The notes below the pieces were generated by a model that had not been told where the DNA came from, searched no databases, and saw nothing but the letters and a program-made list of their open reading frames with translations. The position numbers and the translations under genes are program-made. From Escherichia coli (GTDB lineage: Bacteria > Pseudomonadota > Gammaproteobacteria > Enterobacterales > Enterobacteriaceae), in NCBI RefSeq assembly GCF_003334815.1, contig NZ_QOWO01000002.1: 64,000 nt of DNA. The stretch is one strand, 5' to 3'. This document shows positions 26,485 through 33,734 of the stretch, piece after piece. How positions within the stretch are numbered: the stretch's first letter is position 1; each line of letters starts with the position of its first letter.

Positions 26485-27270
26485 ATGCAGGATCGCAATT
26501 TTGATGATATTGCGGAAAAGTTTTCCCGTAACATTTACGGCACCACCAAAGGGCAGCTTCGACAGGCTATTCTGTGGCAGGATCTCGATCGCGTGCTGGC
26601 GGAAATGGGCCCGCAAAAACTGCGTGTGCTGGATGCTGGCGGTGGAGAAGGGCAGACCGCAATCAAAATGGCCGAGCGTGGGCATCAGGTCATTTTATGC
26701 GATCTTTCTGCGCAGATGATCGACCGCGCAAAACAGGCGGCAGAAGCAAAAGGTGTGAGCGACAACATGCAATTTATACATTGCGCCGCTCAGGATGTTG
26801 CTTCGCATTTGGAAACGCCCGTTGATCTGATATTGTTCCATGCGGTGCTCGAGTGGGTGGCTGATCCCCGCAGCGTATTGCAGACCCTGTGGTCAGTGTT
26901 GCGTCCAGGCGGCGTGTTGTCGTTAATGTTCTACAATGCGCATGGTTTGTTGATGCATAACATGGTCGCCGGGAATTTTGATTACGTGCAGGCGGGAATG
27001 CCGAAAAAGAAAAAACGGACGCTTTCGCCAGATTATCCACGCGACCCGGCGCAGGTTTATCTGTGGCTGGAAGAAGCTGGTTGGCAAATTATGGGTAAGA
27101 CAGGCGTTCGCGTGTTTCATGATTATCTGCGCGAGAAACACCAGCAGCGCGACTGCTATGAAGCATTACTTGAATTAGAAACGCGTTATTGCCGTCAGGA
27201 ACCGTATATTACCCTGGGGCGTTATATTCATGTCACCGCGCGCAAACCGCAGAGCAAGGATAAAGTATGA
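26485..27270 (+). CDS. cmoM: SAM-dependent methyltransferase (tRNA cmo5U methyltransferase CmoM, formerly SmtA)
   Basis: Trimmed to ATG at 26485 (GGAG SD upstream) giving 261 aa ([19 protein letters not shown]…); SAM motif VLDAGGGEG; stop overlaps mukF start. Confidence 0.88.
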
Positions 27271-28589
27271 GTGAATTTTCCCAGACAGTCCCCGAACTGG
27301 TTGCCTGGGCCAGAAAAAATGACTTCTCCATCTCGCTGCCGGTAGACCGACTCTCTTTTCTGCTGGCGGTTGCCACGCTGAACGGCGAGCGTCTGGATGG
27401 TGAGATGAGTGAAGGCGAGCTGGTGGATGCATTCCGCCATGTGAGTGATGCGTTTGAGCAAACCAGCGAAACCATCGGCGTGCGCGCCAATAACGCGATC
27501 AACGACATGGTGCGTCAACGTCTGCTGAACCGCTTTACCAGCGAGCAGGCGGAAGGGAACGCAATTTACCGTCTGACGCCGCTCGGCATCGGCATTACTG
27601 ACTACTACATCCGTCAGCGCGAGTTTTCTACGCTGCGTCTTTCTATGCAGTTGTCGATTGTGGCGGGTGAGCTCAAACGCGCAGCAGATGCCGCCGAAGA
27701 GGGCGGTGATGAATTTCACTGGCACCGTAATGTCTATGCGCCACTGAAATATTCGGTAGCAGAAATTTTCGACAGTATCGACCTGACGCAACGTCTGATG
27801 GACGAACAGCAGCAGCAGGTGAAGGACGATATCGCCCAGTTGCTGAACAAAGACTGGCGGGCGGCGATTTCCAGCTGTGAATTGTTGCTTTCGGAAACTT
27901 CCGGAACGCTGCGTGAATTGCAGGATACGCTGGAAGCGGCAGGCGACAAATTGCAGGCTAATCTGTTGCGCATTCAGGATGCGACGATGACCCATGACGA
28001 TCTGCATTTCGTCGATCGTCTGGTGTTCGATCTGCAGAGCAAACTCGATCGTATTATCAGTTGGGGCCAGCAATCCATCGACTTGTGGATTGGCTACGAC
28101 CGCCACGTACACAAATTTATTCGTACCGCGATCGATATGGATAAAAACCGCGTCTTTGCTCAGCGGTTACGTCAGTCGGTACAAACCTATTTTGATGAGC
28201 CGTGGGCGCTAACTTATGCCAATGCCGATCGTCTGCTGGATATGCGTGACGAAGAGATGGCACTGCGCGATGAAGAAGTGACTGGGGAACTTCCTGAGGA
28301 TCTGGAATACGAAGAGTTTAACGAGATCCGCGAACAGCTGGCGGCGATCATCGAAGAACAACTTGCCGTGTACAAAACCAGACAAGTGCCGCTGGATCTT
28401 GGTCTGGTGGTACGCGAATATCTGTCACAGTATCCGCGTGCACGTCACTTTGACGTTGCGCGTATTGTTATTGATCAGGCGGTACGTCTTGGCGTAGCGC
28501 AAGCAGATTTCACCGGACTGCCAGCGAAATGGCAGCCGATTAATGATTACGGAGCCAAGGTACAGGCGCATGTCATCGACAAATATTGA
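27267..28589 (+). CDS. mukF: chromosome partition protein MukF (kleisin)
   Basis: 440-aa ORF ([58 protein letters not shown]…). Confidence 0.96.
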
Positions 28590-32200: not shown

Positions 32201-33734
32201 GGAAATGCTTAGCGGTAACAGCGATCTCAACGAAAAACTGCGTGAACGTCTGGAACAGGCGGAAGCGGAGCGTACCCGCGCTCGCGAAGCGTTGCGCGGT
32301 CACGCAGCGCAGTTGAGTCAGTACAACCAGGTGCTGGCTTCGCTGAAAAGTTCTTACGACACCAAAAAAGAGCTACTCAACGATCTGCAACGTGAATTGC
32401 AGGATATCGGCGTGCGTGCTGATAGCGGGGCAGAAGAGCGGGCGCGTATTCGCCGTGACGAGCTGCATGCGCAACTGAGCAATAACCGTTCACGCCGCAA
32501 TCAACTGGAAAAAGCGCTTACCTTCTGCGAAGCGGAGATGGACAACCTGACCCGCAAACTGCGCAAGCTGGAGCGGGATTACTTTGAGATGCGCGAGCAG
32601 GTAGTGACCGCCAAAGCGGGCTGGTGTGCGGTGATGCGCATGGTGAAAGATAACGGCGTTGAGCGCCGCTTACACCGTCGTGAGCTGGCTTATCTCTCCG
32701 CTGATGATTTGCGTTCCATGTCGGATAAGGCGTTAGGTGCGCTGCGTCTGGCGGTGGCGGATAACGAACATCTGCGCGACGTGCTGCGCATGTCGGAAGA
32801 TCCGAAACGTCCGGAGCGTAAAATTCAGTTCTTCGTGGCGGTTTATCAGCATCTGCGTGAACGTATTCGTCAGGATATTATTCGTACCGATGATCCGGTG
32901 GAAGCTATCGAACAGATGGAGATTGAACTTAGCCGTCTGACCGAAGAATTAACCTCCCGTGAACAGAAACTGGCGATCAGTTCCCGCAGCGTGGCGAACA
33001 TCATTCGCAAAACCATTCAGCGCGAGCAGAACCGTATCCGTATGCTCAACCAGGGGTTGCAGAACGTATCGTTTGGTCAGGTGAACAGCGTGCGTCTCAA
33101 CGTGAACGTGCGTGAAACGCACGCCATGCTACTGGATGTGCTCTCTGAACAGCACGAGCAGCATCAGGATCTGTTTAACAGCAACCGTTTGACCTTCTCG
33201 GAAGCGCTGGCGAAACTGTATCAACGTCTTAACCCGCAGATTGATATGGGGCAGCGCACGCCGCAGACCATCGGTGAAGAACTGCTGGATTACCGCAACT
33301 ATCTGGAAATGGAAGTTGAGGTTAACCGTGGTTCCGATGGCTGGCTGCGCGCAGAGTCTGGTGCATTGTCGACCGGTGAGGCGATTGGTACCGGTATGTC
33401 GATTCTGGTGATGGTGGTACAAAGCTGGGAAGATGAATCTCGCCGCCTGCGCGGTAAAGATATCTCTCCTTGCCGCCTGCTGTTCCTCGATGAAGCAGCG
33501 CGACTGGATGCTCGTTCTATCGCCACGCTGTTTGAATTGTGTGAGCGTTTGCAAATGCAACTCATCATCGCAGCGCCGGAAAATATCAGCCCGGAGAAAG
33601 GCACCACCTATAAACTGGTGCGTAAAGTCTTCCAGAATACCGAACACGTTCATGTCGTCGGCCTGCGAGGATTTGCGCCGCAACTCCCTGAAACGCTTCC
33701 AGGAACTGACGAAGCGCCTTCTCAGGCGAGTTAA
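29274..33734 (+). CDS. mukB: chromosome partition protein MukB (SMC-like condensin)
   Basis: 1486-aa ORF, Walker [10 protein letters not shown] at N-terminus, long coiled coil; start overlaps mukE stop (TAATG). Confidence 0.97.

Follow-up and report, generated by a model that had tools for sequence, protein, structure and literature searches.

The genes cmoM, mukF, mukE, and mukB of Escherichia coli lie head to tail, each beginning within the end of its predecessor, and this arrangement raised the question of whether the overlapping stop and start codons couple the translation of successive genes, and whether such coupling could set the ratio of the MukBEF subunits. A preliminary description of the locus had read it as consistent with tight translational coupling, plausibly serving MukBEF stoichiometry. 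We examined the four genes and their surroundings in a window of 64,000 nucleotides of the E. coli chromosome (positions are counted from its first letter, and all features described here are on the + strand). Our findings indicated that the locus is a classical operon whose single mRNA is probably translated with partial, non-strict coupling, the internal genes having start regions of their own.

Identity and gene arrangement of the operon

Each of the 5426 complete E. coli genomes carried the locus at 95% identity or more, and a 7.5-kb segment was 100% identical to an annotated E. coli chromosome, whose NCBI PGAP annotation agreed with our gene calls. The open reading frames and that annotation gave four co-directional genes, free of internal stops and of the expected lengths, in the order cmoM (smtA; 26485–27270, 261 aa), encoding a tRNA cmo5U34 methyltransferase, mukF (27267–28589, 440 aa), encoding the kleisin subunit, mukE (28570–29274, 234 aa), and mukB (29274–33734, 1486 aa), encoding an SMC-like ATPase. 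All four products scored above the curated cut-offs of the corresponding NCBIfam equivalogs (NF008264, 504 bits against a cut-off of 366 for CmoM; NF003615, 845 bits for MukF; NF003602, 412 bits for MukE; NF003422, 2647 bits for MukB), and MukE chains in the PDB matched the mukE product.

The locus is the E. coli cmoM(smtA)-mukF-mukE-mukB operon, long known and with a textbook gene order. The smtA-mukFEB operon has been on record since 1995/96 (Yamanaka et al. 1995, 1996, as cited in PMC4255302, PMC3871593, and PMC9239193), and smtA was renamed cmoM once its function in tRNA mcmo5U was found (PMC4737166). Compared with the K-12 smtA-mukF-mukE-mukB operon, the locus in the window had the same genes, order, overlaps, and terminator, with no difference of substance. 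The literature and the NCBIfam equivalogs also bore out that the operon is headed by the gene for an unrelated tRNA-modification methyltransferase; MukF-MukE and MukE-MukB are pairs of MukBEF subunits, while CmoM is not a partner in the complex. An analogous SMC-kleisin-KITE complex, Smc-ScpAB, is used by most other bacteria, and its accessory genes are likewise usually adjacent in one operon; smc, however, usually lies apart from scpA and scpB, whereas Muk bacteria carry all three genes in one operon (PMC4255302). As a discovery the locus carries little weight, as the operon, its gene order, and the oddity of smtA/cmoM as first gene are textbook knowledge and stop/start overlaps have been well studied.

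Overlaps between adjacent genes

Direct reading of the junctions reproduced each overlap that had been described for the operon. At the cmoM/mukF junction (27256–27270), an SD sequence, AAGGA (27256–27260), is followed by a 6-nt spacer and by ATGA (27267–27270), in which the cmoM stop TGA (27268–27270) and the mukF ATG (27267–27269) overlap, base for base as claimed, by 4 nt. The mukE ATG at 28570 lies within mukF, whose stop TGA occupies 28587–28589, giving a dual-coding overlap of 20 nt (28570–28589) between the 3' end of mukF and the 5' end of mukE, with mukE in the +1 frame. At the mukE/mukB junction (29260–29276), the SD sequence GGAGAGGA, encoded by Glu codons in the acidic tail of MukE, precedes TAATG, where the mukE stop TAA (29272–29274) and the mukB ATG (29274–29276) share 1 nt. 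Because the reading frames follow one another without untranslated gaps (overlaps of 4, 20, and 1 nt), each downstream ribosome-binding site lies inside the preceding gene. A practical consequence for the engineering of muk alleles is that deleting or tagging the end of one gene will also strike the ribosome-binding site of the next.

The like geometry noted for msbA-lpxK and ycaR-kdsB was also confirmed, as both pairs have ATGA overlaps that can be read from the sequence (21314–21317 and 23800–23803, respectively). The lpxK gene has almost no SD (-1.5 kcal/mol). Of the 38 co-directional neighbour pairs in the window, 10 overlap; in most prokaryotic groups the share of overlapping pairs is about 15%. 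The E. coli genome has 820 co-directional pairs with spacings of -8 to +10 nt (PMC10666635). The pattern of overlaps is no more than chance would give for genes of an operon, and since bacterial operons routinely show such overlaps, those at the muk junctions are a correct but ordinary observation. So common a feature could be a by-product of genome compaction and of drift in start and stop codons, with independent initiation at each gene and no coupling function, as in bioBF, which has an ATGA overlap yet shows no coupling (PMC6728339).

Conservation of the junctions

Our study added a comparative survey of the junctions over 80 Enterobacteriaceae species, taken as the best 80 matches of a contig search, all of which were Enterobacteriaceae; more distant lineages were sampled singly through contigs encoding homologues, mostly metagenome contigs. 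The three junctions differed in how they were kept. Among the best 80 matches, the cmoM/mukF distance drifted between species (-8, +3, or -4), and the exact ATGA varied even inside the Enterobacteriaceae, while the AAGGAT core before mukF was kept in 76 species despite the shifting distance between the cmoM stop and the mukF start. One distant lineage lacked cmoM upstream of mukF. The mukF/mukE distance was -20 in 79 of 79 Enterobacteriaceae species from the best 80 matches, and gaps of 34 and 85 nt separated the two genes in two more distant lineages. At mukE/mukB, the distance was -1 in 76 of 80 species (range -1 to -8), and GGAGG/GAGGAAGA together with TAATG was likewise kept in 76 of these best 80 matches. 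Distant homologues had mukE and mukB overlapping or abutting (-1 to -11), with TAATG retained in both cases of -1. The mukE/mukB overlap persists in distant Muk lineages, whereas the cmoM/mukF geometry drifts.

Nucleotide conservation was concentrated at the same places. When the 7.4-kb alignment was ranked in windows of 60 nt, the top three for conservation, beginning at 28542, 27267, and 29264, were the three junction start regions; the modest comparative gain of our study is that nucleotide constraint within the operon is highest at these internal starts. The strongest signal surrounds the mukE ATG, in a near-invariant block of 66 nt (28535–28601, ca. -35 to +30) that contains GGAG (28551–28554), AAGG (28557–28560), the ATG at 28570, the mukF stop, and a further ATG at 28597. 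This block holds the 60-nt window with the highest conservation in the operon (0.061 bits per site, the mean being 0.438), third codon positions have an entropy of 0.03–0.16 bits against a mukF mean of 0.89, and conservation at synonymous sites reaches past the dual-coding part of mukF/mukE. We read the block as the translation-initiation region of mukE.

These data bear in both directions on the view of the overlaps as a by-product. The cmoM/mukF junction, moving around a constant SD, behaves as that view would predict. Against it, no junction distance exceeded +3 nt in the 80 species of the best 80 matches (cmoM/mukF lay within -8 to +3), and the conservation of the three junctions points to selection, for which selection on SD and start region alone could suffice. 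Furthermore, an elongating upstream ribosome passes over each start site, so that some interaction is unavoidable. We consider a by-product without coupling function to be unlikely.

Transcription of the operon

The operon status of cmoM-mukFEB was upheld by the literature, by the lack of promoter-like sites inside it, and by a strong terminator after mukB. Reviews and primary papers treat smtA-mukF-mukE-mukB as one operon. The long smtA-mukFEB transcript decays with a single short lifetime throughout its length (PMC4332155), and replacement of the promoter upstream of smtA by Para raised MukB 6.3-fold (PMC7163298). Long native RNA reads from Dickeya support a single unit of the smtA-mukFEB type. 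The intrinsic terminator (33739–33770), the only strong one, lies 5 nt past the mukB stop and consists of a G+C-rich hairpin of 9 bp with a T run behind it; the only + strand terminator-like matches inside the operon, near 26896–26916, have 3 G-C pairs, and the total of such matches equals the shuffle expectation. An Rfam scan of the operon and its surroundings returned no match.

Upstream, cmoM starts at ATG 26485 behind the SD GGAGA (26475–26479). The longer start given by the open-reading-frame list, GTG at 26473, was discarded as it has no SD. In the elyC-cmoM intergenic region, the conserved run TGACAAAATA (26431–26440) is among the longest near-invariant runs in a 72-sequence alignment of the operon and may represent the extended -10 element of the operon promoter, a candidate assignment; a strict sigma-70 consensus scan of 26350–26484 found no + strand promoter. 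That a promoter lies upstream of cmoM is supported by the published promoter replacement.

If part of mukE-mukB expression came from separate RNAs, through internal promoters or MazF-type cleavage at ACA, coupling would be bypassed. Table 1 of PMC5001579 lists mukE among MazF-processed, polysome-associated mRNAs, the cleaved ACA being 7 nt from its start, and the locus has ACA at 28562–28564 and 28590–28592, 8 and 7 nt before the candidate ATGs at 28570 and 28597; the first is kept in all 79 and the second in 74 of the 79 species from the best 80 matches. However, the list derives from mazF overexpression, and mukE was not seen named among the 15 sites validated by primer extension (PMC5001579). 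The common decay of the operon transcript (PMC4332155) and the response of MukB to the promoter upstream of smtA (PMC7163298) also speak for one RNA. A consensus scan of 26485–33734 gave no + strand promoter-like site inside the operon. The leaderless-mRNA/stress-ribosome model has been contested by later studies, which further lowers the standing of separate RNAs, and we regard such a contribution as highly improbable.

Translation initiation and coupling

Each of mukF, mukE, and mukB is preceded by a conserved SD of its own, at 27256–27260, 28557–28560, and 29263–29267, respectively; the SD-like sequences before mukF and mukB are well spaced, and that of mukE is weaker. Stable local structure able to block de novo initiation at the internal SDs was not seen at the muk junctions: fold z-scores ranged from -1.1 to +0.6 at the three junctions, and RNAalifold at mukE/mukB returned no conserved helix and no compensatory pairs. 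The predicted opening energies of the start regions (8.1–9.6 kcal/mol) fell inside the range of nearby first-in-operon genes (5.4–15.6 kcal/mol), as folds of short fragments in silico, a weak predictor of accessibility on translated mRNA. With their own SDs and no masking RNA structure, initiation without coupling would be feasible, and start regions predicted to be accessible would also fit overlaps that are a by-product.

The degree of coupling can be gauged against the termination-reinitiation pairs studied by Huber et al. (2019, PMC6728339; 2023, PMC10666635). The distances at cmoM/mukF (-4) and mukE/mukB (-1) are the two commonest geometries of such pairs, the SDs are likewise inside the upstream reading frame, and mukF/mukE and mukE/mukB encode subunits of one complex. 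Such junction geometry often yields translational coupling (PMC6728339). The set tested by Huber et al. excludes the muk pairs, and while cmoM/mukF and mukE/mukB belong to the -8 to +10 nt class in which coupling has been demonstrated, the 20-nt overlap of mukF/mukE falls beyond it (PMC10666635). Four of the five tested E. coli pairs at -4 were coupled, one of them only to about 60%, and one was uncoupled; coupling tracked local structure, with strict coupling accompanying stable structure (PMC6728339). A literature search combining "translational coupling" and mukB gave irrelevant co-occurrences only, and no coupling test on muk genes was found.

Strict termination-reinitiation, in which initiation on each gene comes only or mainly from ribosomes that have completed the one before it and the MukBEF ratios are thereby fixed, draws on the canonical distances of -4 and -1, on three of the five E. 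coli pairs tested, whose downstream gene was nearly silent without upstream translation (PMC6728339), on the 4.5-fold enrichment of short overlaps among E. coli genes for heteromeric complexes (PMC10666635), and on the strong conservation of the junctions. The composition of the complex is the main difficulty. MukBEF has a B:E:F ratio of 4:4:2, and MukE is therefore needed at about twice the amount of MukF, encoded upstream, which one-for-one hand-over of ribosomes is insufficient to supply. The conserved SDs of mukF, mukE, and mukB also count against it, as does de novo initiation unblocked by stable structure, unlike in the strictly coupled E. coli pairs of Huber et al., which had masking structure. 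In addition, at the -20 overlap of mukF/mukE the ribosome would have to move backwards, two distant lineages have mukF and mukE separated by 34 and 85 nt, and cmoM, whose product is no partner in the complex, is missing from its place before mukF in one lineage. These features of the sequence speak against deriving the 4:4:2 stoichiometry from strict one-for-one coupling, and we hold strict coupling to be distinctly unlikely.

Partial coupling within a classical operon accommodates these observations, and a coupling reading of the overlaps is plausible; its degree, and the shares of re-initiation and de novo initiation, are our inference. A single mRNA of about 7.3 kb would begin at a promoter in front of cmoM and end at the hairpin terminator after mukB, and mukF, mukE, and mukB would each be translated through their own conserved, SD-containing start region. 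Ribosomes ending the upstream gene may keep the next start region unfolded and re-initiate nearby, with the strength of the start region, rather than one-for-one hand-over, setting an output of MukE and MukB about twofold that of MukF.

Candidate starts of mukE

The start of mukE was the one soft point of the gene calls, with in-frame ATGs also at 28543 and 28597. The comparative data favour the ATG at 28570, and the N-terminus MSSTNIEQ is common to homologues without the internal Met. The longer start at 28543 was discarded, as its SD is weak and the codon is ACG in 18 of 79 species from the best 80 matches. The ATG at 28597, which would give a product of 225 aa, is conserved in Enterobacteriaceae; as the main start it was rejected, having no SD and being missing from distant homologues that keep the longer N-terminus, and it is retained only as a possible minor start. 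These results are useful for picking the MukE start in expression constructs.

The mukF stop lies between two conserved in-frame ATGs, one with an SD 17 nt before it (28570) and one lacking an SD 8 nt after it (28597). A similar layout was described for the coat and lysis genes of phage fr, whose 34-nt overlap was reported to let ribosomes scan backwards and re-initiate (Adhin and van Duin 1990, as cited in PMC10666635). Both have a long overlap, a downstream start before the upstream stop, and in-frame starts on both sides of that stop; phage fr, however, is a phage system that uses the start nearest the stop, whereas the upstream ATG of mukE has its own SD. Since the two ATGs flank the mukF stop, de novo initiation and re-initiation could use different starts and produce two MukE isoforms. 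That the 28535–28601 block is more than a ribosome-binding site, yielding isoforms of 234 and 225 aa or serving to regulate the 2:1 output of MukE to MukF, seems to us very unlikely. Solved structures have used both lengths (234 and 225 aa) as "MukE".

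Identity and organization of the cmoM-mukFEB locus

Several annotated E. coli chromosomes carry the 7.5-kb segment at 26300-33800 with 100% identity, and each of the 5426 complete E. coli genomes searched had a match to it at ≥95% identity (5426/5426). Coordinates lifted over from the PGAP annotation of an identical strain, and verified by translation, placed cmoM at 26485-27270 (261 aa), mukF at 27267-28589 (440 aa), mukE at 28570-29274 (234 aa), and mukB at 29274-33734 (1486 aa), all on the + strand and free of internal stops. All four proteins surpassed the NCBIfam curated equivalog cut-offs for CmoM, MukF, MukE, and MukB. 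After the mukB stop codon, a terminator-like hairpin of 9 bp, G+C-rich and followed by a T run, was found at 33739-33770. A consensus promoter scan did not locate the operon promoter. The elyC-cmoM intergenic region was variable except for a near-invariant run, TGACAAAATA, at 26431-26440; lying ca. 45 nt 5' of the cmoM ATG, it is a candidate, on sequence grounds, for an extended -10 element of that promoter.

The operon is already known, and its gene packing is of an ordinary, well-studied kind. From Yamanaka et al. (1995, 1996) onward, the smtA-mukF-mukE-mukB genes have been called an operon, and reviews and primary work treat them so; SmtA was later identified as CmoM (PMC4737166). The long smtA-mukFEB RNA has one short lifetime for every segment and is degraded co-transcriptionally (PMC4332155), and putting Para in place of the promoter upstream of smtA raised MukB-mYpet 6.3-fold (PMC7163298). 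In Dickeya, the smtA-mukFEB transcription unit is backed by long native RNA reads; for Vibrio fischeri, the operon is a prediction. A literature search pairing mukB with "translational coupling" yielded no coupling study of the cmoM-mukFEB operon.

Junction geometry and its conservation

The preliminary description held that overlapping stop and start codons chain the four genes, and direct reading of the bases confirmed this at all three junctions. At cmoM/mukF, the cmoM stop (TGA, 27268-27270) and the mukF ATG (27267-27269) shared ATGA; the mukF stop (TGA, 28587-28589) lay beyond the annotated mukE ATG at 28570, so that the two genes overlapped by 20 nt, mukE being read in the +1 frame; and in TAATG the last A of the mukE stop (TAA, 29272-29274) was the first base of the mukB ATG (29274-29276). 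The parallel overlaps claimed for msbA/lpxK (21314-21317) and ycaR/kdsB (23800-23803) were likewise borne out, with ATGA at both. Of the 38 neighbouring co-directional pairs in the annotation covering the window, 10 overlapped, the five besides those above being ssuB/C, ssuD/A, ssuA/E, elfC/G, and ycbV/F. Overlaps occur in near 15% of co-directional pairs in most prokaryotic groups (PMC6728339). E. coli has 820 co-directional pairs spaced between -8 and +10 nt; subunits of heteromeric complexes are encoded by 30.4% of these, versus 6.8% of pairs separated by over 20 nt (PMC10666635). Overlaps like those of cmoM-muk are not above chance for genes in operons.

The comparative anatomy of these junctions is new in this analysis. 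In 80 loci from different Enterobacteriaceae species, with the four genes placed by tblastn and stop-codon extension, the mukF-to-mukE distance was -20 in 79/79 species and the mukE-to-mukB distance was -1 in 76, -4 in 3, and -8 in 1, making both geometries nearly fixed in the family. The cmoM-to-mukF distance was -8 in 34 species, +3 in 30, and -4 in 12, around an AAGGAT core unchanged across all three, and ATGA is therefore one of three interchangeable geometries. Within the operon's coding sequence, conservation across these loci (L004-L083) was lowest, by a wide margin, at the cmoM 3' end (27220-27270), where the stop took one or another of the three distances from the mukF ATG while the AAGGAT Shine-Dalgarno (SD) sequence stayed put. 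The mukF ribosome-binding site appears to have shaped the CmoM C-terminus.

The survey also took in, singly, more distant MukE homologues (44-69% identity), a small sample in which starts were the gene-caller's own. One lineage lacked cmoM and had a mukF-mukE gap of 34 nt, another had an 85-nt gap, and the remaining lineages had overlaps of 8, 20, or 32 nt. With these gene-caller starts, mukE and mukB overlapped or abutted in every case (-1, -1, -7, -4, -11, -4). Some MukE homologues (P0127, P0130, P0136) reached 500-574 aa through very long, extremely acidic, low-complexity C-terminal tails, of which the E. coli MukE tail is a short version.

In a whole-operon alignment of 72 sequences, mean per-site entropy was 0.39-0.56 bits across the four genes. 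Over all 60-nt windows (mean 0.438, sd 0.146), the three lowest non-overlapping ones, starting at 28542 (0.061 bits), 27267 (0.116), and 29264 (0.187), coincided exactly with the mukE, mukF, and mukB start regions. Third-codon-position entropy in mukF averaged 0.89 bits but fell to 0.03-0.16 over 28535-28589, and was 0.05 in mukE codons 1-10, indicating a constrained block from ca. -35 to +30 around ATG 28570. It takes in more than the 20 nt that code in two frames and roughly matches a ribosome-binding region in size. Such strong conservation of the junctions weakened a purely neutral origin of the overlaps, even if it could also arise from selection acting on nothing but the SD and start region.

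The mukE start codon

Three in-frame ATGs could open mukE. That at 28543 was rejected, with a poor SD and ACG in 18/79 species. ATG 28570 and ATG 28597, on either side of the mukF stop, were each present in 79/79 Enterobacteriaceae species. Because only 28570 had an SD-like sequence (AAGG, spaced 9 nt from the ATG and inside the mukF ORF, and GGAG farther upstream) and distant homologues keep the longer N-terminus, without Met at the 28597 position, the annotated 20-nt overlap is the best-supported reading. Solved structures contain MukE of 234 aa (3EUH) and of 225 aa (3RPU, 7V8P); the start is therefore not handled uniformly in the field.

Expression of mukE from a separate RNA, through MazF processing, has one published hint in its favor, and the model underlying MazF-processed mRNAs is contested. 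Conserved ACA triplets at 28562-28564 and 28590-28592 preceded ATG 28570 by 8 nt and ATG 28597 by 7 nt, respectively. A table of MazF-processed, polysome-associated mRNAs includes mukE and puts its cleaved ACA at 7 nt from the start (28570 or 28597), but the listing derives from mazF overexpression and mukE was not seen named among the validated sites (PMC5001579). Two other genes of the window appear in that study: pflA, in the same MazF-regulon table, and rpsA (bS1), which is placed among processed ribosomal-protein mRNAs and was itself shown by primer extension (PMC5001579).

Translation of the muk genes

Strict coupling in the service of MukBEF stoichiometry, as the preliminary description proposed, was weakened by the start regions themselves. 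Each downstream gene had its own SD: AAGGA 6 nt before the mukF ATG, inside the cmoM ORF; AAGG at mukE; and GAGGA 6 nt before the mukB ATG, encoded by Glu codons of the acidic MukE tail. None of the three regions folded unusually well (z-scores +0.6, -1.1, -0.4), RNAalifold found no conserved or compensated helix at mukE/mukB, and the opening energy of -18 to +12 (8.1-9.6 kcal/mol) was inside the range of first-in-operon genes in the window (5.4-15.6 kcal/mol). Native E. coli pairs at -4 have been put to systematic test in one study only: three were strictly coupled, one ca. 60% coupled, and one uncoupled, the degree following stable structure at the start region (PMC6728339). By this yardstick, the muk junctions look like partly coupled or uncoupled pairs. 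Furthermore, MukBEF is 4:4:2 B:E:F (PMC8602292), so MukE output must be ca. twice that of upstream MukF, which is out of reach of one-for-one re-initiation. The stoichiometry rationale is no simple consequence of junction geometry.

Translational coupling of the muk genes is nonetheless reasonable as a hypothesis. In our best reading, mukF, mukE, and mukB would each be initiated, on one mRNA, via their own conserved start region; upstream ribosomes may help by keeping the region unfolded and by local re-initiation, and start-region strength would set subunit ratios. The degree of coupling in this mechanism is inferred. Elsewhere in the window, at 21290-21317, the ATGA-overlapped start of lpxK was preceded by essentially no SD (its best duplex being -1.5 kcal/mol); lpxK is a better candidate than any muk junction for strict dependence on upstream (msbA) translation.

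Other features of the window

An Rfam scan of the 64-kb window gave no match in or adjoining the muk operon; its only two gathering-score matches were the PyrD leader at 57648-57721 (97.9 bits) and the ES036/CssrF sRNA at 37343-37385 (53 bits). In the reference-strain annotation, the 3' ends of convergent ycbJ and elyC overlapped by 24 nt (25570-25593, checked against window ORFs), and those of zapC and ycbX by 4 nt near 59430, an approximate position. Between aroA and ycaL, a 1426-bp insertion (11664-13089) absent from the reference strain was flanked by a 13-bp direct repeat, CGGCACATTGTCG (11651-11663, 13090-13102), and had terminal inverted repeats. It contained an ORF on the - strand (11677-13023, 448 aa) matching an IS4-family transposase model at 303 bits, and is an IS4 copy with its target-site duplication.
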